From Escherichia phage vB_EcoM_EP32a: a stretch of 64,000 nt of DNA. The translations under genes and the position numbers were made by a program. The DNA lies in the sequence record OR544954. The stretch is one strand, 5' to 3'. Below are positions 2,520-17,136 of this stretch, one piece after another (position 1 is the stretch's first letter; each line of letters starts with the position of its first letter). The notes beneath the pieces were generated by a model that searched no databases, was not told the origin of the DNA, and saw only the letters and a list, made by a program, of their open reading frames with translations.

Positions 2520-3094
2520 TATGCAATCTCCATCTCACGAATCAAATCTGTGATAAACGAGTTTATATCTTCTTTTGCAACAATTTTTATTTTACGAAGT
2601 TTTTCATTATCTAATACTGCCGCTTCATAAGTATCTACTGCAGCTAAAGGTCCTTTATATTGCGGATACTTACGAGCTTCATCACCTTTATCGTACCACA
2701 CTAAAGGCTCGTCCGGATATGAAACCAAATTGTAAAATTTCTCACGGTTCTCGTTAATATGATAAAGAATTTGGTCTCCGCCGGCATTTGCATATTTCTG
2801 AATAGAAGCTTGATACGCTGCTTCCTGAGATGTAATCCAACCATAATACGGGTCGTAGTTATCGTTGCACATCAAAAGAACCCAGTATAATTGTGGGTTT
2901 CCATAAATTATGTTTGCTAGTTCTTCAGGACGTGGAGAGCCTTTAATGTAATAAGAACGTAATCTATAATTGGCCGCCACACGCTTAAAGTACTCTTTAT
3001 AGTTACGAAATATGTCTGTCATAGGAATAGTAGGTGCATTCTTATTAACTGTTTTAGCACTATATCCTATTGGGTCGAAGAATGTAAATAACAA
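2519..3094 (-). CDS. 53: baseplate wedge protein gp53
   Basis: 191-aa ORF MLFTFFDPIGYSAKTVNKNAPTIPMTDIFRNY... matching T4 gp53; stop overlaps gp5 start. Confidence 0.9.
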   Translation of the reverse strand: MLFTFFDPIGYSAKTVNKNAPTIPMTDIFRNYKEYFKRVAANYRLRSYYIKGSPRPEELANIIYGNPQLYWVLLMCNDNYDPYYGWITSQEAAYQASIQKYANAGGDQILYHINENREKFYNLVSYPDEPLVWYDKGDEARKYPQYKGPLAAVDTYEAAVLDNEKLRKIKIVAKEDINSFITDLIREMEIA

Positions 3095-3121
3095 GATAGT
3101 CTCCTTCCAATATGAAATTGG

Positions 3122-3129
3122 TATAAATA
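3122..3129 (+). promoter_or_regulatory. late promoter (TATAAATA) for gene 4
   Basis: Exact T4 late-promoter octamer about 27 nt upstream of the gene 4 ATG. Confidence 0.6.
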
Positions 3130-3136
3130 ATAATAC

Positions 3137-3144
3137 TATTTATA
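3137..3144 (-). promoter_or_regulatory. late promoter (TATAAATA on minus strand) for gene 53
   Basis: Plus-strand tatttata is TATAAATA on the minus strand, about 43 nt upstream of the gp53 ATG; divergent from the gene 4 promoter. Confidence 0.55.
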
Positions 3145-3155
3145 AGGAGGACAAC

Positions 3156-3605
3156 ATGGCCTACTCTGGTAAATGGGTCCCAAAAAATTTAAAAAAATAC
3201 CGTGGAGACCATACCAAAATAACGTATCGTTCAAACTGGGAAAAATTCTTTTTCGAATGGTTGGATAAAAATCCAGAAATTATTGCATGGGGTAGTGAAA
3301 CAGCAGTAATTCCATATTTTTGTAATGCTGAAGGTAAGAAACGTCGATACTATATGGACATATGGATGAAAGATGCATCAGGCCAAGAGTTTTTTGTAGA
3401 AATAAAACCAAAGAAAGAAACTCAACCACCTATTAAGCCCGTAAATCTTACGACCGCAGCAAAGAAACGTTATATGAATGAAATCTACACGTGGTCTGTG
3501 AACTGTGACAAATGGAAAGCTGCTTCAGCTGTTGCTGAAAAGAGAAATATAAAATTTCGAGTTCTAACCGAAGATGGACTTAGGAAACTCGGATACAAGG
3601 GGTAA
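3156..3605 (+). CDS. 4: head completion protein gp4
   Basis: [43 protein letters not shown]... matches T4 gp4; start moved to the internal ATG preceded by AAGGAGG. Confidence 0.9.
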
Positions 3606-7851: not shown

Positions 7852-8367
7852 ATGAATATTCGTTTAGGCAGTACAATTCCTAAGGGCTACGTAATTGATG
7901 TCACTACCTAGGAAAATGATGGTGACAACTATAAAACCAAAACATTGTTTGAAGTGGAAGAGCATGAGCTCCAACAGTTTAAATATCTCTTGAAGAAATT
8001 TAAGAGTCGTCATTCTAGCACTAAAGCCGAACGTTATTGTGGTAATACACCATTCAGTGATTGCTCGCTTTTAATCTATGAATACTTGGTTGAAGGGCTG
8101 TTCTCAGACCAGCTTTATCCAGAATTTATTAAAAAGGTCTTTGATATTGAAGTCGACCTCGGTAATAAATCTGAAGAAGACGAAGCGCGTGTATTTGACC
8201 TGTTCCATGAGAATGGATATTTAGTATCAGAAGGTCTCATTGATATTCTTGGCCATGCTTCTGAATACTATGATTACGATTTCTTGCGTGTAGTTGAACG
8301 TGTCGAATTTGCTTATATTGAAGAAGAAATCGTTTTGCCAACCGTTAAAATGGTTGATTTGCTTTAA
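7852..8367 (+). CDS. hypothetical protein, reading frame interrupted by in-frame TAG at 7909-7911
   Basis: ATG 7852 with GGTGA SD opens MNIRLGSTIPKGYVIDVTT, then TAG, then the same frame continues ENDGDNYKTKTLFEVEEHELQQ... to 8367. Confidence 0.4.
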
Positions 8368-9870: not shown

Positions 9871-10098
9871 ATGGCTAAAGTTAGTATTGATGTCGTTGAT
9901 TATGAATACACCGAAGAAGTTATTCGCAACCGACACCCTGAAGTTCGTATCGATTCAGTCCAAGATTCCAAGTTCTGGACAACTGAGCTTAATCTGAGTG
10001 GTCCTTATGAAGCTGTTAAGAAGTTCATGGTTGAAGAATACTGCGAAGGCATGCACCCTGAAGATGCAGAATTTTATGTCAACTTGATTAAAAAATAA
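9871..10098 (+). CDS. hypothetical protein
   Basis: 75-aa ORF after promoter cassette 9811-9845 and AGAGGAAAA SD. Confidence 0.5.
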   Translation: MAKVSIDVVDYEYTEEVIRNRHPEVRIDSVQDSKFWTTELNLSGPYEAVKKFMVEEYCEGMHPEDAEFYVNLIKK

Positions 10099-10168
10099 TT
10101 TACAAACTCTCGAGAGCAGAGTATAATGCTCTCGTTGGATAATAAACCACCAATTGAAAGGTAATAAT

Positions 10169-10762
10169 ATGAACACACTGAAGAAACTTGTTGAATTCAT
10201 CCGCACTAAACTGGGTACTGCTATGGCTAAAAATCTGACTGTCGAAGAACAGTATAACGCAGCTGCAGATAAGTTGATTACCCAAATCAAAGAACTAAAA
10301 ACGGCTTCTGTTAAATCTATTAATGAAGAAAAACGTATTCGCGAACTTGTTAATGAAAAGAATAAGCAAGCCGCTTCTAAGGAACGTGAAATTCGTAAGC
10401 TCCTGGCTGAAGGACAAGATGTTACTATGCATGCTAAGCTTGGTCTTCTGTATCGTCGAACTGCCGAACAACTTAATACAAAAGCTGACGGGTATGCCGC
10501 TATGCGAATTGAAATTGCTCGTAAGGTGGTTGAACTTGATGATGCTCGTCAGAATCTGGCAATCAAACTCGAATACATTCGTGAAACTCGAGCAGCCAAT
10601 GCCCTTGGTATCTCTACGGCTGATGATGTAATTGAAATCGCTGCACTGACTAAGGTTGATATCGAAGACACTCTGACTCGTGTTGAAACGTTCAATGGCA
10701 CTCCAGCCGGTGTCGAAACCACTTCTGCTGATGTACAAGAATATATTAACTCTTTGAAATAA
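10169..10762 (+). CDS. coiled-coil protein (possible PspA/IM30-like architecture)
   Basis: 197 aa, heptad-rich helical sequence; resemblance to PspA is by pattern only. Confidence 0.5.
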
Positions 10763-10770
10763 AATAATAC

Positions 10771-10794
10771 GGAGGACTCCGGTCCTCCTTTTGG
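10771..10794 (+). terminator. rho-independent terminator
   Basis: GGAGGACTccGGTCCTCC hairpin followed by TTTT. Confidence 0.6.
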
Positions 10795-10811
10795 ATAATA
10801 AAGGAGTTAAC

Positions 10812-11414
10812 ATGCGAAACCAAAATAATGATATTGACTCAATGTTCGAAGAGTTCCGAAATAAGGTAAATCCACCTACGTCTTTAGTTGATTCATTACG
10901 ATATGTTGCAACTGGACGTAAATGGTACTGGTCGTCTTCTTATGAGACTACTGAGAAAACGGCCAGCCATAGCAGAAAATCTTTATTAGCCCCAGGTATT
11001 ATGATTCATGATATCGGAGCTATTGCTAAACTAGTTGCAGACCATGATATTAGATTCACTGATTTCGTTGCTCCTACGTGGTCTGTTTGTTGTTTAAACA
11101 CTGAATGGGAATATATCAGCGAACGCTCTAAAGATTATTATGGTTTTAGAGACAAGCTTTTAAGGTCTAACATGTTTTATATTGATACAGAAGTTCTGGT
11201 CAATAATAAAAAATACTACTTCACTTTAATCATCGATTCTGAAACTATGTATGAAGGCAAGCCTTTGCTTAAGAGAGTTGATGCTTTAAGTGCTATTGAT
11301 GCGCTTTATGAAACTATGGTTGTTAGTCCTAATTTCACTAACAATTTAATCCTTGAGCAATTTATTATGGAATGTAGAGAATATGTCAAAGCCAACCCTA
11401 TACATGCCAAGTAA
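10812..11414 (+). CDS. hypothetical protein, C-terminal EQFIMECRE motif
   Basis: 200-aa ORF; ATG after AAGGAG. Confidence 0.55.
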   Translation: MRNQNNDIDSMFEEFRNKVNPPTSLVDSLRYVATGRKWYWSSSYETTEKTASHSRKSLLAPGIMIHDIGAIAKLVADHDIRFTDFVAPTWSVCCLNTEWEYISERSKDYYGFRDKLLRSNMFYIDTEVLVNNKKYYFTLIIDSETMYEGKPLLKRVDALSAIDALYETMVVSPNFTNNLILEQFIMECREYVKANPIHAK

Positions 11415-11778
11415 GCCCTGGGCGTATGAATACAAGCGTAAATTAATCCCAAATGAAGTACTATTTGGCCCTATTTTAGCTTTAGCATTTTTAATCTTTA
11501 TGATTATAGGAGCTGTTTTAGATTCTAGTGAAGTTATATCGTCTGATGCAGCATTTTCATTAATGTTCGTCGCACCACTTATTGTACCGTTTTTATTAAT
11601 GCCTATTAATTGGGTAGGATATTGGCACCAAGGCCGTCATCACAGAGCCCGATTAAGAGAATGGAAAGTTCAGTGCGCAAAAGCCCAAGCTCAGTATGAT
11701 GAAGCTGTTAAAAAGTATGAATATGAAGAAGCTATGGAATTCGTTAAGGAAATAAGATGCAAAAGCCTCAACTCTTAA
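11383..11778 (+). CDS. small membrane protein
   Basis: Hydrophobic segments ILALAFLIFMIIGAVL and MFVAPLIVPFLLMPI; start overlaps upstream ECRE motif. Confidence 0.5.
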   Translation: MSKPTLYMPSKPWAYEYKRKLIPNEVLFGPILALAFLIFMIIGAVLDSSEVISSDAAFSLMFVAPLIVPFLLMPINWVGYWHQGRHHRARLREWKVQCAKAQAQYDEAVKKYEYEEAMEFVKEIRCKSLNS

Positions 11779-12116
11779 CCGTATGGCCTTCTCTTGGTGA
11801 GAACATTCTAATTTTTATTATGAGTATTGGCATGGGATTTGCCTTTGGATTAGTTGGATTTCTTATTGACGGCGTTGTGTTAGGATTTATAGGGAACACT
11901 GGTGGATTCACAGACCAATGGCAGGACTTACGGTACACCCAAGCCTTTGCATCCATCGCATCATTTTGTACTGTAGTCTATTTTTACTACGATTTTATAA
12001 ACCACAACAAGAAAAATAAAAAGGTTTACGCTTCTCAAATGATTAGTTATAATGAACTCCTAGCTAGACGTGAAAATGAAACAATCGAAAACTTTATTAA
12101 GGAATGTAGAAAATGA
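11757..12116 (+). CDS. small membrane protein, C-terminal ENFIKECRK motif
   Basis: TM segments; conserved C-terminal motif. Confidence 0.5.
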   Translation: MQKPQLLTVWPSLGENILIFIMSIGMGFAFGLVGFLIDGVVLGFIGNTGGFTDQWQDLRYTQAFASIASFCTVVYFYYDFINHNKKNKKVYASQMISYNELLARRENETIENFIKECRK

Positions 12117-12418
12117 GTAAGATTATTGAAATTAAAGTACCAGAGTTTAATGATGCCAAATCCGCTTCAGATGCAATTTATAAACTTCTGAATCAAGCTG
12201 AACGTATCGAAGAAGAAGCAACAAAGATCGCAGACCAATATGCCGTATCATTTTCTGTAGGTGATTATGGTAGCGGTCGTACTTATTATCCTAAGGGTGA
12301 AATCGTATCCCAGTGGATGAAAGATGAAATTGAAAATAATGGCGGCGATGTTAAGCGTGAAGGTAATGGATACGTTATTACTGAAGGTGCTTGGGTTTCG
12401 TCTTCTGCGTTGTGCTAA
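12113..12418 (+). CDS. small protein, C-terminal GAWVSSSALC (paralog 1 of 3)
   Basis: ATGA-coupled ORF; shares C-terminal GWVxSSxxC with the next two ORFs. Confidence 0.5.
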   Translation: MSKIIEIKVPEFNDAKSASDAIYKLLNQAERIEEEATKIADQYAVSFSVGDYGSGRTYYPKGEIVSQWMKDEIENNGGDVKREGNGYVITEGAWVSSSALC

Positions 12419-12427
12419 GGAATCATT

Positions 12428-12700
12428 ATGTCTAAAGAACAAACCGAACTGGCTGAAGCTGTAGCAAAAATCTATGCAGCTATTGAGGCTGCCAAAGAAA
12501 TTGCTGATAAACAAAACACAACATTCAACTTGTACCCAGCTTATGGTATGGGTGGAACCTATCATTCACCCGGACATCTTAAAGCCGATCTTGAACGTTG
12601 TACAAAAAACGGCTATGCTGAATGGGCTGACGTTTACCAATACGACTACAACCTGAGCCTCGAAACTGGTGGTTGGGTCGCATCTTCTCACACTTGCTAA
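12428..12700 (+). CDS. small protein, C-terminal GGWVASSHTC (paralog 2 of 3)
   Basis: ORF after AAGGAA SD. Confidence 0.5.
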   Translation: MSKEQTELAEAVAKIYAAIEAAKEIADKQNTTFNLYPAYGMGGTYHSPGHLKADLERCTKNGYAEWADVYQYDYNLSLETGGWVASSHTC

Positions 12701-12709
12701 GGAAACAAT

Positions 12710-12907
12710 ATGTCTCGTGAATTAGATTGTGCTGTACGTACGGCAGTAGCTGCTCTGGAAAACCTGTTCCAAATTGCAACAGAAGAACGCGAAGAAGTTA
12801 CATTATGGATTGAAGATAACGCAGGTCTGAATCTCCAGGACGCGATCTCATTATCCCACAATAGTATCACTGTTCAAGGCTGGGTATCATCTAGTTATTC
12901 TTGCTAA
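12710..12907 (+). CDS. small protein, C-terminal QGWVSSSYSC (paralog 3 of 3)
   Basis: ORF after AAGGAAA SD. Confidence 0.5.
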   Translation: MSRELDCAVRTAVAALENLFQIATEEREEVTLWIEDNAGLNLQDAISLSHNSITVQGWVSSSYSC

Positions 12908-12913
12908 AACAGT

Positions 12914-12948
12914 TTACAACAAGATAGGGCTATGTTATAGTAGTCCTA
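12914..12948 (+). promoter_or_regulatory. early promoter cassette (GTTTAC ... TGTTATAGT) with palindrome
   Basis: agtttacaacaagatagggctatgttatagtagtcctatcaaaacaaatggag. Confidence 0.5.
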
Positions 12949-12969
12949 TCAAAACAAATGGAGTCCACA

Positions 12970-13209
12970 ATGATTTATTACGAAAGTATCGGAACCAAAG
13001 TGGTTGGCAAAACCATTACTCGTGAAAAGTTTGCAAAGATATTCGATATGCGTTATAAAAAATCTGAACACAAAGGCATCCGATTCGAAGATGCGCACTG
13101 TACAATTTGCCCTTATAATGAAGACATAAACGGTACAATCGTTCCATTGGTAGAAGCTTCACATGATGACCTCTGGGATGAATATAATATCGCATGTCGT
13201 GAAATTTAA
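12970..13209 (+). CDS. hypothetical protein
   Basis: ATG after the conserved leader caaatGGAG. Confidence 0.45.
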   Translation: MIYYESIGTKVVGKTITREKFAKIFDMRYKKSEHKGIRFEDAHCTICPYNEDINGTIVPLVEASHDDLWDEYNIACREI

Positions 13210-13237
13210 GTTAATGAATTAATCCGAGGAAAATATT

Positions 13238-14194
13238 ATGATGTTAGTTATTGGTTCTCGTGCACTTCACTATCACGGTCTTATTGATTCTAGCGCTATC
13301 AAAAATAGTGATTGGGACTTTATTGCGGACCAAGGTTCTTGGAATGCATTCAAAAATCAAATGATGGGTGTATATGTCCACCAAGATAACCCTGATGTCC
13401 AAGTTTTCAAATGCTTCCATAATGGTCGCGAAACTCATTTTGAAGCATATATTGTTCCGGCAATCACTAATGTCCGTGAATTAGTCGGTGAACTCACTCC
13501 TGAAGATTTCACATCTTCTTATGACCTTTTAAAATACGCCAAGAAAAATTTGACTAAAGACCGTTTGAACGGGTTTTACTGGGCAACTCCTGAGATATGT
13601 CTTGCAATTAAGATGTCTCATCGTTTCAAGAAAAATAATCCATTCTTTTTAAAGACTATGAACCATATTCAGTATCTTCGTGGTAAAGGTGTTACACTGA
13701 ACGATGAACTTACTGAAATTATGCTGAAACGCCAAAAAGAAACTTTGAACTATGCTCACCCTGTTCTTGACACTTCTAAAAGTGCGTTCTTTAAAGATGA
13801 CATCTATACATATGACCATGATACTATTCACGAAGCCATTGCACTAACAGACCGTCCGGCTTATATGTTTTACATGAAAGATGGTTCTGAAGTCATGACC
13901 TCACGCGAGAAGTTCGAATCATTACCGGAAATGGTCAAATTGGCCGGTGTATATGAAGAATCATGTGTACTAGCATTAGAACGTTCTCAGATTCCTAACG
14001 ACTTTAAAATCCATCCACGTGATAGTTTTATGATGGCCCTTGAAAAGGTCTGTACATCAATCACATCAGGATGGTTCCGTGAGTTCGCTTGGGAAAATTA
14101 TAGCAAAGTAGTAAGTATGTACCAAAGCTTAGGACACGACGATTACGTCAAGCGTTTCAAACAAAACTTTCATATGGTAAAACCTTTCAAATAA
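13238..14194 (+). CDS. hypothetical protein, possible nucleotidyltransferase fold
   Basis: 318-aa ORF; N-terminal IGSRAL...SDWDFIAD loosely fits the G-S...D-x-D NTase motif with atypical spacing. Confidence 0.5.
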   Translation: MMLVIGSRALHYHGLIDSSAIKNSDWDFIADQGSWNAFKNQMMGVYVHQDNPDVQVFKCFHNGRETHFEAYIVPAITNVRELVGELTPEDFTSSYDLLKYAKKNLTKDRLNGFYWATPEICLAIKMSHRFKKNNPFFLKTMNHIQYLRGKGVTLNDELTEIMLKRQKETLNYAHPVLDTSKSAFFKDDIYTYDHDTIHEAIALTDRPAYMFYMKDGSEVMTSREKFESLPEMVKLAGVYEESCVLALERSQIPNDFKIHPRDSFMMALEKVCTSITSGWFREFAWENYSKVVSMYQSLGHDDYVKRFKQNFHMVKPFK

Positions 14195-14274
14195 TTTCAC
14201 AAAACAGTTTACAAGGTCTGTAGTTGTTGATACTATAGACCTATCAAAACAAATGAGTGAATGGAGATATAAAA

Positions 14275-14475
14275 ATGACTACTTTGAATAAACGTTTCGG
14301 TAAAGCTAAACCTGGTTGTGCAGCAGAACGTCGTTATGTTTTCGCTCAGTTAGAAGATGTAGAGTATCAGATTAATCAAGTTCACATTACTGGTATCGAG
14401 CCTATGTGTGGCCTTGAAGCTCTTCGTGAAGTTCGTGATGGGTATCGTCGTGACATCGAAGAAATGTCAAAATAA
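14275..14475 (+). CDS. hypothetical protein
   Basis: ATG after a promoter cassette and aatGGAG leader. Confidence 0.45.
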   Translation: MTTLNKRFGKAKPGCAAERRYVFAQLEDVEYQINQVHITGIEPMCGLEALREVRDGYRRDIEEMSK

Positions 14476-14533
14476 GTGTACAAACTGATAGGACTATGTT
14501 ATAGTAGTCCTATTAAAACATGAGGAGAATATT

Positions 14534-14839
14534 ATGAAATTAGGCGAAACCAACCGAATTGGTCTTTTAACAATATTTGTATCACTTTTTTACGCAGCTC
14601 TTTCTGTTGCAGTATTACAAAAGGCTTACAGTATGGATGGTGTTCCTGGTTGTATATTTTTATCACCATTTTTGCTATTCGTTGGAGCTTTGTTATTATA
14701 TGCCACGTCTGGTTTCGACAATAATGTCTGGGTCAATTATAAACGTAAATTGTCTGAAGAAGAACACGCAGAAGCTCGTAAAAAAGCTATTGAATCTACC
14801 AATCTAGAAAATTTCATTAAAGAATGTCGAGGAAAATAA
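14534..14839 (+). CDS. small membrane protein, C-terminal ENFIKECRGK motif
   Basis: TM segments LLTIFVSLFYAALSVAVL and FLSPFLLFVGALLLY. Confidence 0.5.
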   Translation: MKLGETNRIGLLTIFVSLFYAALSVAVLQKAYSMDGVPGCIFLSPFLLFVGALLLYATSGFDNNVWVNYKRKLSEEEHAEARKKAIESTNLENFIKECRGK

Positions 14840-14967
14840 TATGAATAGTTCTAAAGTGTTTAATAGTCAAGCTCGTGCAGTAGGTGGTTTTGCTCACGCG
14901 ATTAAAAATGACCAGATTAAAAACGAGCCTATGTTCTTCAACTGTAGTATTTGATTCACGAGTCCAT

Positions 14968-15441
14968 ATGCTGATGCCTGGTTGGTATCCTGCTATTCCA
15001 GGTTATCACCATGACGATGTACCACGCCCGGATATTCCAGTTGGTCAACACTTTATTACTGCAGGACAACCTGACTATGACAATCCTCGCTATTTGTCTG
15101 AACACATTCTTGGTCTTGTTAACGCTGATGTGTGTCCTACTCATTTTGCAACAGGAACTGCAGAGTTCAGTCAGATTCCTGATGGCGAACTTATCTATCG
15201 CCAGTGGCACAAAGAAGTCCTCGAAAAAATCGAAAAAGGTGAACTAGAGAAATGGGAAGCTCCGGACCGTACTCTTCTTCAGTTTGATTGGCAAACATGG
15301 CACACTGGTTCTCGTGCAATTAGTAATGGATGGCGTTGGTTCGGACGTGTATCTCGTAATACAGACCGAGTTAAAAAGATTACCAATGAAATTCGTGTCA
15401 ATGCTCAAGTTTATCTGGAATTCCCTATGGAAGGCTGGTAA
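14968..15441 (+). CDS. hypothetical protein (possibly the shifted continuation of the 14851-14964 mini-ORF)
   Basis: 157-codon ORF from an ATG without an SD; a strongly SD-led 37-codon ORF (14851-14964) ends in another frame just upstream. Confidence 0.35.
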   Translation: MLMPGWYPAIPGYHHDDVPRPDIPVGQHFITAGQPDYDNPRYLSEHILGLVNADVCPTHFATGTAEFSQIPDGELIYRQWHKEVLEKIEKGELEKWEAPDRTLLQFDWQTWHTGSRAISNGWRWFGRVSRNTDRVKKITNEIRVNAQVYLEFPMEGW

Positions 15442-15932
15442 TGATTAACAAAACATATTGGTCTAATATTGACGACGGCAATGAAGGTATTTCATACTAT
15501 TCAGTAGATTGGACAGGATGTCCATCCTACTTAGTGAAACGTATTTGCCAAGAATTTAAAATCGACCAGCCAGCAGGTATTATCGTGAACAGATACATTA
15601 ATGGATATCAACCTATCGATGAAGTAATACGAACAACTCAAGCTGAGCTTGAAAAGTTTTTCAATAAGTGCCAATGGATAACAGGATGGATTATATTTGT
15701 ACCGTCTATATGGTTTTTCAGTACTAAGGTGAGTTCTTTCGGTTTTGTTGATATTATTGCTATCTTATTAGCATCTACTATCGTAAGTATTATTGGCGGT
15801 ATAATTGGTGGAGGTACTGTAGGCATCATTATTAATCTTATTAAAAGTAGTTTACAAGAACATAAAGACAAGATAAAAGCCAAGAATAATGAAGTTGAAC
15901 GTTTTATTACCGAATGCAGGAATTTGAGATGA
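15441..15932 (+). CDS. membrane protein, C-terminal ERFITECRNLR motif
   Basis: ATGA overlap; TM region WITGWIIFVPSIWFF...IIGGIIGGGTVGIIINLI. Confidence 0.5.
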   Translation: MINKTYWSNIDDGNEGISYYSVDWTGCPSYLVKRICQEFKIDQPAGIIVNRYINGYQPIDEVIRTTQAELEKFFNKCQWITGWIIFVPSIWFFSTKVSSFGFVDIIAILLASTIVSIIGGIIGGGTVGIIINLIKSSLQEHKDKIKAKNNEVERFITECRNLR

Positions 15933-16165
15933 GTATAGCAATTTACATTAAATCAGAATCATGTGATAGTTATCTGTACACATACGATAAAGATGTGTCA
16001 GAAGAAAAAATCAAAGACGACCTTAATACGGATCTTGATATGTTCTGTCCTATTGCAGATTACAAACTTGCGGTCTCTAATAGTGAAAGTCCATCTAAAG
16101 AAACGCGCATTGAAGAATTTATGTCCGAATTAATGGCCAAATCATGGGACCGAGATGATGAGTAA
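15929..16165 (+). CDS. hypothetical protein
   Basis: ATGA-coupled 78-aa ORF. Confidence 0.45.
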   Translation: MSIAIYIKSESCDSYLYTYDKDVSEEKIKDDLNTDLDMFCPIADYKLAVSNSESPSKETRIEEFMSELMAKSWDRDDE

Positions 16166-16613
16166 GAAAAATAAAGTGAAAGAACTATCAGCCGGTATTA
16201 TTTTCCTTACCGAAGATAAAGAATTATTCATGGGGCGTGTAACTGGTTCTCGTCCTAAAGGTTCTTTAGCTCATCGCTGGGATATTCCTAAAGGACGTGT
16301 CGAGCCCGGTGAATCTCCTATTGAAGCCGCTATTCGCGAATGCGAAGAAGAAACTGGGTTTACACAATATGACCCTGCCTTCCTGAAAGACCTAGGTGAA
16401 CATCATTACTCAGACAATAAGAATATTCATCTGTTCCTATATACCATCCCTGTAGAGCACGAGCAATTCAGAAACAGTGCTTGTAATTCCTATCATACAT
16501 TCCCAGACGGACGACAGATTCCTGAATTTGATGCGTTCGCTTTAATTAAACCTTCTCAATGGGAATATGTAATGGGCAAATCATTATATAAGGTGCTCAC
16601 TACCCTCCTATAA
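16155..16613 (+). CDS. nudE: Nudix hydrolase (NudE / e.1-like)
   Basis: Nudix box GRVEPGESPIEAAIRECEEETGF; immediately upstream of lysozyme as in T4. Confidence 0.8.
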   Translation: MMSKKNKVKELSAGIIFLTEDKELFMGRVTGSRPKGSLAHRWDIPKGRVEPGESPIEAAIRECEEETGFTQYDPAFLKDLGEHHYSDNKNIHLFLYTIPVEHEQFRNSACNSYHTFPDGRQIPEFDAFALIKPSQWEYVMGKSLYKVLTTLL

Positions 16614-16647
16614 GTAATAAATACCTCCTATAAACGTGGGAGGTATT
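16603..16647 (+). promoter_or_regulatory. SD-sequestering hairpin with embedded late-promoter-like TATAAAcg upstream of gene e
   Basis: tACCTCCtataaacgtgGGAGGTa: the SD GGAGG pairs with upstream CCTCC; direct repeat cctcctataa at 16603 and 16624. Confidence 0.45.
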
Positions 16648-17136
16648 ATGAATATATTTGAAATGCTTCGTAATGACGAAGGTCTTAGACTGACTTTATA
16701 CAAAGACACTGAAGGCTTTTGGACGATTGGCATAGGCCATTTAGTAACAAAGAACCCATCTTTAGCCGTAGCTAAAGCTGAACTTGACAGAATGATCGGA
16801 CGTAAATGCAACGGTACAATTACCCTTGATGAGGCTGAAAAGCTATTTAATGAAGACGTTGATAAAGCTGTTCGCGGAATCTTGGGTAATGCTAAACTTA
16901 AACCGGTATATGATTCTTTAGATGCAGTTCGTCGATGTGCATTGGTCAATATGGTCTTCCAAATGGGTGTAACAGGCGTCGCCGGTTTTACTAATTCTCT
17001 TCGTATGCTTCAACAGAAACGTTGGGACGAGGCGGCAGTAAATCTAGCCCAATCTAAATGGTACCGTCAGACACCTAATCGCGCGAAACGCGTAATCTCA
17101 ACATTTAAAACAGGAACTTGGAAAGCGTATATATGA
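16648..17136 (+). CDS. e: endolysin (T4 lysozyme e homolog)
   Basis: [32 protein letters not shown]... strongly similar to T4 lysozyme. Confidence 0.95.

Follow-up and report, generated by a model that had tools for sequence, protein, structure and literature searches.

A shared C-terminal peptide and probable dual coding at gene junctions in the e cluster of T4-like phages

Five open reading frames (ORFs) on the plus strand of Escherichia phage vB_EcoM_EP32a end in related peptides, and the DNA encoding this tail is probably under a dual constraint, with a conserved C-terminal peptide and the Shine-Dalgarno (SD) sequence of the next gene sharing one stretch of ~25 nt. The ORFs lie between positions 10812 and 15932 of the 64,000-nucleotide stretch analysed here (record OR544954; hereafter the window). 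They are the RB69-type e.5, e.4, e.3 and e.2 together with a short paralogue, and have in common only a C-terminal module: hydrophobic(-3)-[E/N/D]-x-[F/W]-[I/V]-x1-x2-C-[R/K], numbered from F/W as position 0 and followed by 0-15 mostly basic residues. In the protein layer, F/W, I/V, C and R/K are kept whatever the codon, with or without a nearby downstream start. In the initiation layer, to which covariation points, the x1x2 codons spell the downstream SD when the next ATG is no more than 5 nt from the Arg codon; for an ATG 7 nt or more away, x1x2 is free and a purine-rich Arg codon plus the next codon supplies the SD, or the SD lies in the tail. The peptide itself may be a docking helix for several early proteins, four of them membrane-bound and one soluble.

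Escherichia phage APCEc01 and other Mosigvirus (RB69-type) phages match the locus at 98.5% identity. On its 3′ side lie nudE, encoding a Nudix hydrolase (16155-16613), the lysozyme gene e (16636-17136) and then denV, which makes the interval equivalent to the ‘e’ cluster of T4. The order in the window, e.6 (10169-10762), e.5, e.4, e.3 ... e.2, a 78-amino-acid ORF, nudE and e, is the same in T4. ORFs were assigned with PHROG profiles and by BLASTP against T4 proteins. Matches to PHROGs 2203, 2330, 2604 and 2607 were full-length, at full coverage, with E values of 4.5e-50 to 7.6e-96, and the T4 counterparts were 31-54% identical. The e.5 homologue (10812-11414) encodes a soluble protein of 200 amino acids with no predicted transmembrane (TM) segment (phrog_2607, E=7.6e-96; 47% identical to T4 e.5), in which the motif is internal to the C-terminal helix (...LEQFIMECREYVKANPIHAK). 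The other four motif proteins each have two predicted TM segments. These are the e.4 homologue (11383-11778; 131 amino acids; phrog_2604, E=2.7e-64; 54% identical to T4 e.4), which ends in a degenerate motif (...AMEFVKEIRCKSLNS); the e.3 homologue (11757-12116; 119 amino acids; phrog_2330, E=4.5e-50; 35% identical to T4 e.3), ending ...IENFIKECRK; a Mosigvirus-specific short paralogue (14534-14839; 101 amino acids; phrog_9798, E=2.7e-64), ending ...LENFIKECRGK; and a full-length e.2 homologue (15441-15932; 163 amino acids, with an N-terminal domain of ~80 residues before the two TM segments; phrog_2203, E=3.7e-55), ending ...VERFITECRNLR.

The T4 genes e.2-e.5, annotated there as hypothetical or conserved hypothetical, are thus direct homologues with the same order and the same tails. 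T4 e.2 is broken by two in-frame stops, whereas e.2 in the window is full-length. The window also differs from T4 in carrying the additional 101-amino-acid paralogue and a 3.3-kb block of other genes that separates e.3 from e.2. The paralogue weakly matches positions 79-165 of phrog_2203, the C-terminal half of full-length e.2; it has no T4 counterpart, and only 7 clusters, all at least 75% identical, were found for it in 5.8 billion proteins. GenBank records of JK42, ESCO47, CT01 and others carry the label ‘sulfurtransferase’ under e-cluster matches, in some cases on e.4 or e.3. A rhodanese domain with a Cys-X5-Arg loop was not found in any of the five window proteins, nor was any Pfam or NCBIfam domain, and the label therefore looks spurious. 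PF26876 is listed in the precomputed Pfam annotation of e.5 homologues; window e.5 had no match in the Pfam-A copy searched, which presumably predates this family.

Within the window, the tail stands out from chance. A strict form of the motif, the regular expression [EN].F[IV].EC[RK], has four matches in the six-frame translation, all on the plus strand, all in ORFs within 10812-15932 and all 1-11 codons before the stop; 60 block shuffles gave none. Two further matches to a looser pattern, at 3071 (plus strand) and 4927 (minus strand), fall in non-genic frames. The copies are EQFIMECR in e.5 (11355-11378), the degenerate EFVKEIR in e.4 (11737-11757), ENFIKECRK in e.3 (12087-12116 with the stop; strict match 12087-12110), ENFIKECRGK in the 101-amino-acid ORF (14807-14841; strict match 14807-14830) and ERFITECRNLR in e.2 (15897-15932 with the stop; strict match 15897-15920). 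A preliminary description made from the window's letters had proposed such a C-terminal motif in small, mostly membrane proteins, and the four strict copies and the fifth in e.4 bear this out. Its reading of the first ORF as ending in ...ECRE needs correction: the ORF runs on for 10 residues (YVKANPIHAK; ...ECREYVKANPIHAK) and overlaps the next gene, whose ATG is at 11383, by 32 nt.

Related tails were also found in other T4-like genomes. The clusters compared were those of T4, Gaprivervirus (SP18, VR7, CJ20), Kanagawavirus (Q7622), Marfavirus, Klebsiella phage Roth21, Moonvirus (Merlin), Winklervirus (CHI14), Biquartavirus (avDM5), Muldoonvirus (WSPA) and RB43. In the generalised form hydrophobic-x-x-[FW]-[IV]-x1-x2-C-[RK], the motif occurs at or near the C-terminus in nine T4-like genera, and most compared phages have several proteins with related tails. 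Motif-bearing C-termini were seen in Gaprivervirus, Kanagawavirus, Marfavirus, Moonvirus, Winklervirus, Biquartavirus and Klebsiella phage Roth21, and the most distant clusters (avDM5, WSPA and RB43) keep a related tail on the e.5-like protein. T4 proteins end ...EKFVKECREYVKAITIPSK, ...KFVKESRCKSQS and ...EFVIDCRKIK; elsewhere the tails include ETFIKECKS, NSFIEECRK, FDKFVKGCRNGRRS, FANWIKGCRK, FNTWIRSCRK, ISDFIKGCRK, IELFIMQCRMRKTECC, INSFIKYCRGKHVS and ELFVDYCRRTASKK. In 46 instances, position -3 is L, F or I and position -2 is E, N or D; position 0 is F (40) or W (6), +1 is I (33) or V (11), +2 is K (27), +3 is E (17) or G (11), +4 is C (37) and +5 is R (43) or K (3). Between the motif and the stop lie 0-15 residues, most commonly one K. 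The E of ‘ECR’, which the preliminary description had counted as part of the motif, is not a conserved residue, as other genera show G, H, Y, S, L, Q, M or N in its place.

This module is the sole near-invariant block in alignments of the e.5, e.4, e.3 and e.2 families, which are otherwise 14-35% identical between genera. In the e.5 family (14-21% identity between genera, 47% to T4), R189 is nearly invariant. F120 and R125 are invariant in e.4, as are F113 and C117 in e.3. In e.2, C159 and R160 are the only invariant columns and I156 is nearly so. Profile-profile comparison with hhalign aligned e.4 with e.3 (94% probability, 37 columns), e.2 with e.3 (93%, 17 columns) and e.5 with e.2 (16%, 13 columns), in each case over the tails only. 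Outside the tail, hhalign found no significant similarity between groups and BLASTP matches between them were confined to the motif, the exception being the weak match of the 101-amino-acid ORF to the e.2 profile. What the groups share is therefore a C-terminal module rather than a whole-protein family, and the ‘family’ of the preliminary description shrinks to the last 13-37 residues. When 1.84 billion representatives were searched exhaustively with HMMER, only 12 e.2-like clusters came back, and the e.2 family is thus confined to T4-like phages. Word-indexed protein searches gave 7, 3 and 6 clusters, nearly all of them close relatives; an IMG/VR scan with e.3 gave 2 loci; and profile searches of the PDB, run with the alignments of e.5 and e.2, turned up nothing above noise.

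Codon usage separates the positions held as residues from those that follow the next gene. Motif codons vary at F/W (TTT, TTC, TGG), at I/V (ATT, ATC, ATA, GTN) and at C (TGT, TGC); Arg is encoded by AGA, AGG, CGT, CGA, CGC or CGG, and Lys in its place by AAA. The residues F/W, I/V, C and R thus persist while their codons change, which marks them as constrained at the protein level. The F, I and C codons follow genome-wide usage, whereas 20 of the 36 codons for the motif Arg are AGA or AGG, compared with 17% genome-wide, a three-fold enrichment. Across 7 Mosigvirus genomes, none of the 40 motif codons is variable, compared with ~16% synonymous-variable codons elsewhere in the same genes. In five Tequatrovirus genomes, synonymous changes are present in the codons for F, V and C and absent from the SD-forming AAG GAA or AGG. 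The preliminary description had left a choice between protein-level conservation and a reused coupling or RNA element. Protein-level conservation and a translation-initiation constraint both stand, on different positions: the residues persist across codons, while x1x2 and the Arg codon track the downstream ATG.

The junctions of the five motif genes comprise overlaps of 32, 22, 4 and 4 nt and one 1-nt gap. The e.5 ORF overlaps e.4 by 32 nt, the e.4 ORF (start 11383) overlaps e.3 (start 11757) by 22 nt, and ATGA stop/start overlaps occur at 12113 and 15929. In e.4, the K-E codons AAG GAA form the SD AAGGA (11746-11750), 6 nt before the ATG of e.3, which begins within the motif's Arg codon at 11757. 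The same two codons in e.3 give AAGGA at 12099-12103, 9 nt before the ATG at 12113; the string quoted in the preliminary description, TTTATTAAGGAATGTAGAAAATG, lies here, at 12093-12115. In the 101-amino-acid ORF, the SD GAGGA (14829-14833), 7 nt before the ATG at 14841, is made by the Arg and Gly codons CGA GGA and not by K-E. In e.2, the Arg codon AGG and the Asn codon AAT supply AGGA (15918-15921), 7 nt before the ATG at 15929. The e.4 ATG at 11383, 4 nt downstream of the motif in e.5, is preceded only by a weak GGA/AGAG. The proposal that motif DNA doubles as SD and start context of the next ORF consequently holds for e.4, e.3, the 101-amino-acid ORF and e.2, and weakly for the step from e.5 to e.4. 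An identical K-E pair is spelled AAG GAA, an SD, in e.3 and AAA GAA, which is none, in the 101-amino-acid paralogue.

This dependence on distance recurs across genera. An SD 4-mer lies within x1x2 at 16 of 22 junctions with the ATG no more than 5 nt from the Arg codon, whereas only one of the 17 junctions with an ATG 7 nt or more away has such a 4-mer there. Near an ATG, x1x2 reads KE (AAG GAA or AAG GAG), KG (AAA GGA or AAA GGG), EE (GAG GAA), RS (AGG AGC) or ME (ATG GAG). At the 17 junctions with a far ATG, it reads TE, ID, QM, KY, NS, MQ, AK, NL, KH, DQ or DY, and the SD is formed by the Arg codon and the next codon (AGG AAx, AGA GGx, CGA GGA) or lies within the tail. The e.2 family shows the shift within a single gene: with the ATG at +1 or +2 (Q7622, Marfa, CHI14, SP18) x1x2 is KG or EE, and with the ATG at +8 (the window, T4, Merlin) x1x2 is TE or NS and the SD comes from AGG-A. 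Since x1x2 spells the SD only near an ATG, the ‘E’ and much of the ‘K’ in FIKECR are mainly ribosome-binding-site sequence. Even with 14-38 nt to the next start and an SD located elsewhere, the motif is still present, as in the e.5-like genes of Kanagawavirus, Moonvirus, Winklervirus, Biquartavirus and Roth21; in Roth21, a further soluble protein keeps it with a distant next ATG.

The peptide is amphipathic and predicted to form a helix, with the hydrophobic positions -3, 0, +1 and +4 on one face and a mean hydrophobic moment of 0.60 versus 0.40 for shuffles. The e.4 group has I, V or M in place of the Cys (in T4 e.4 it is S), so this position would act mainly as a small hydrophobic residue. 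An AlphaFold2 model of e.2 (predicted local distance difference test, pLDDT, 74) places the second TM segment and the tail in one helix, residues 102-161, with pLDDT falling to ~50-68 at its end. The tail is not packed on the N-terminal domain in this model, which therefore lends no support to intramolecular docking. The e.5 model is weak (pLDDT 57), because the alignment is shallow and sequence searches return few clusters; it has a helix at 179-194. By the positive-inside rule, we infer that the tails of the two-TM proteins are probably cytoplasmic. Each genome has 4-6 different proteins with the tail, membrane-anchored and soluble, and the same terminal helix on all of them is most simply explained by a shared docking site. 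We think that the tail may be a short docking helix by which these early proteins touch one common partner or one another.

A candidate partner is e.6. The e.6 homologue (10169-10762) is 88% identical to T4 and 31-65% identical out to Klebsiella, Aeromonas and RB43-type phages; it is far more conserved than its neighbours and is always immediately upstream of the e.5-like gene. Some GenBank records label e.6 as a ‘host specificity protein’. A PspA/IM30-like identity for e.6 was considered and dropped, as it found no sequence support in Pfam, NCBIfam or PDB. Two other ideas about the tail were set aside. A gp21 prohead-protease site (I-x-E) would need the E, which is not conserved outside three genera. 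A metal or Fe-S ligand, or a rhodanese-like Cys, was rejected as the leading idea given the I, V or M (S in T4) of the e.4 group and the lack of a domain.

Several observations weigh against the dual constraint and the docking helix. The Fisher test on the 16/22 and 1/17 junctions (p=4.7e-5) overstates the evidence, as the junctions compared are phylogenetically non-independent. In addition, the division into near and far ATGs follows in part that between the membrane and e.5-like families. The K seen at x1 in 27 of 46 instances could be favoured at the protein level too. The junction from e.5 to e.4 has a weak SD despite an ATG at 4 nt, and SP18 e.5 has no SD. The 7 Mosigvirus genomes that show no synonymous variation are close relatives, and over the tail the confidence of both AlphaFold2 models is modest (pLDDT about 50-68).

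For the peptide, an alternative to docking on a partner is a membrane-surface amphipathic anchor, or a helix for homo- or hetero-oligomerisation among family members. The amphipathic pattern with basic C-terminal residues, the continuation of the last TM helix into the tail in the AlphaFold2 model and the four to six copies per genome would all suit it. Generic membrane-binding helices usually lack an invariant Cys-Arg pair or acidic residues at -2/-1, which argues against an anchor, and the present data fit self-association and binding of a third protein alike. Taken together, we consider this alternative unlikely.

The junction DNA is also a site of gene loss. In T4, OMNI12, slur14 and GiZh, the C-R-K codons are common to the e.3 tail (...TG[C/T] AGG AAA AT[T/C] AAATGA) and the e.2 tail (...TGC AGG AAA TTA AAATGA). 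In G4498 (3050-3412), an e.3/e.2 hybrid tail, EFVSDCRKLK, is joined in TGCAGGAAA and abuts the nudE start directly; e.2 is absent. T2 (AP018813) and IME340 have the same 141-nt junction, unbroken, and also lack e.2; in T2, as in G4498, the deletion is precise. As read from these genome sequences, a crossover in the repeated ~10-nt junction is shown to have removed a whole gene in frame while keeping a tail and the next gene's start; it is the repetition of this junction that allows whole genes to be removed or added in frame. Gene remnants point the same way. T4 e.2 (NC_000866, 3492-3961, minus strand) is annotated as 102 amino acids and cut by an in-frame TAG and then a TAA, and its frame runs on to ...NNFITECRKLK, overlapping the nudE start; OMNI12, slur14 and GiZh, also Tequatrovirus, have an intact e.2 ORF of 162 amino acids. 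In phiE142 (7991-8090), e.3 has lost ~240 bp internally and keeps a promoter-like site and its last 30 codons with the motif; LF82-5 and moha show, from alignments alone, a gap of similar size in the same stretch of the query. The T4 and phiE142 remnants are equally consistent with simple retention of the region needed for the downstream start.

Short repeated regulatory sequences at gene boundaries, the promoter and stem-loop elements called PeSLs, are known to support the deletion and insertion of genes by recombination (PMC2839356; Comeau et al. 2014, PMC4122927). The junctions resemble PeSLs in being repeats at boundaries within a variable region and in their association with gene loss (e.2 in G4498, T2 and IME340). 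They differ in that the repeat consists of coding sequence and a ribosome-binding site, not a promoter and terminator, and that crossover homology is only ~9-11 nt; a single type of event is documented, without demonstrated selection for a shuffling role. An early-promoter-like site, TTTACG-17-TATAAT (12025-12053, plus strand), falls within the 3′ portion of e.3, ahead of both motif and SD, and has no hairpin; it is the site that phiE142 retains along with the final 30 codons. No stem-loop was found at any motif copy and the pairing of a sigma-70-like promoter with a terminator stem-loop was not observed; lacking such a promoter-terminator hairpin, the junction is not a PeSL. A broader possibility is that it is a portable, dual-coded cassette, a coding-sequence analogue of PeSLs that packs a docking peptide and a ribosome-binding site into ~25 nt. 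We regard such a cassette as rather doubtful. If it were true, phages could delete, duplicate or swap small membrane-protein genes in frame with both functions intact, and the cassette would explain the same tail on unrelated bodies as well as its retention in the dead T4 e.2 and phiE142 e.3.

Returning to the dual constraint, its simplest competitor holds that the motif acts at the protein level only and that the overlap with ribosome-binding sites is incidental to tight gene packing and to the purine-rich codons of K, E, R and G. Strong residue conservation across genera would agree with this, and K, E and R are common in cytoplasmic tails anyway. The behaviour of x1x2 makes it improbable: these residues change from KE to KG, EE, RS or ME while AGGA, GGAG or AAGG is kept, and only where the ATG is within 5 nt. 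The 101-amino-acid paralogue encodes K-E by AAA GAA at a junction whose SD is supplied by CGA GGA, AGR codons for Arg are three-fold enriched, and within genera the SD-forming codons are invariant while the F, V and C codons vary.

The converse, that a ~23-nt string is conserved purely as a nucleotide element (a coupling or ribosome-binding cassette, or an RNA or DNA signal) with the likeness of the peptides a by-product, is very improbable and largely refuted already. It would account for the position of all five copies on the next gene's start region, for the absence of synonymous variation in the 40 motif codons of the Mosigvirus genomes, and for the retention of the last 30 e.3 codons in phiE142 and of the tail of the nonsense-disrupted T4 e.2 upstream of nudE. 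Between genera, however, F/W, I/V, C and R stay as their codons change, with Arg in six codons, and the motif is kept with the ATG 14-38 nt away and the SD elsewhere. Nor is there a sign of structured RNA, or support for the reused RNA element that the preliminary description had allowed: Rfam covariance models run over 10000-17000 gave no match at E<=1, and the five junctions fold no better than shuffles (z from -0.84 to +1.69). The e.3 junction (copy 3) is in fact unusually open, being less structured than 195 of 200 shuffles (z=+1.69).

Nascent-chain arrest of the SecM, MifM or TnaC type, in which a ribosome held at the junction would control the next gene, is hardly credible: it would suit a motif placed at the very C-terminal end, 22-40 residues beyond the final TM segment and right at the start of the next gene, but the e.5-like proteins are soluble with the motif 5-24 residues before the stop, several copies are 14-38 nt from the next start, no SD-sequestering hairpin is present for a stalled ribosome to open, a paused ribosome would cover the downstream SD, and no resemblance to known arrest peptides was seen.

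The genes e.2-e.5 are known but uncharacterised T4 ORFs, and the mechanisms invoked here are of known kinds. Placing an SD within the 3′ coding end of the preceding gene, together with ATGA overlaps, is textbook translational coupling. The window shares with it the stop/start overlaps (4, 4, 22 and 32 nt), an SD 6-9 nt before the ATG inside the upstream ORF, and codon choice bent towards a purine-rich SD. It differs in that the SD coincides with a conserved peptide and is placed in x1x2 or at the Arg codon depending on tail length; coupling itself is putative here, judged from the arrangement of the genes. Short linear docking motifs at C-termini are likewise familiar from the FtsZ C-terminal peptide, the SSB tail and clamp-binding motifs. 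The likeness lies in a short, conserved, terminal amphipathic peptide on a variable linker in several proteins; there is no sequence resemblance to the tail described here, whose docking is putative. Searches of the literature on the e.x genes found no published function and no description of a shared tail for e.2-e.5. In the literature searched, we also found no prior description of two SD placements covarying with tail length or of the junction crossover.

The tail offers a lead on the T4-type early genes e.2-e.5; as the most conserved part of their products, it is the obvious bait for a partner. The junctions also provide a natural case of dual coding, in which a ribosome-binding site and a conserved peptide coincide and the site occupies one or the other of two codon positions depending on how long the tail is. 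Annotation, the reading of ‘conserved’ residues (E is none) and the recoding or engineering of T4-like phages are all affected. For gene turnover, they show how microhomology at coding junctions yields exact gene loss in natural T-even phages.

Other features of the cluster were noted in passing. A promoter-like site with an 11/12 match lies upstream of e.6 (10099-10127), and a strong intrinsic-terminator-like hairpin (GGAGGACTCCGGTCCTCC then TTTT) lies between e.6 and e.5 (10771-10788). A second C-terminal motif family is formed by small soluble proteins encoded in tandem at 12113-12418, 12428-12700 and 12710-12907, which end ...EGAWVSSSALC (phrog_899), ...GGWVASSHTC and ...QGWVSSSYSC. Paralogues with W-[VF]-S-S-S-x-x-C or ...W-x-x-S-S-C endings number 2-6 per locus in 8 of 11 other cluster loci, and such paralogues are absent from T4, Roth21, avDM5 and RB43. 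Finally, 14841-15441 holds a homologue of RB69ORF132c (a 228-amino-acid protein, phrog_1843) that has an 86-bp deletion when compared with phage 55 and phiE142. The frameshift that results leaves ORFs of 37 and 185 amino acids; the possible readings are a pseudogene, a product shortened at its N-terminus and an assembly error.

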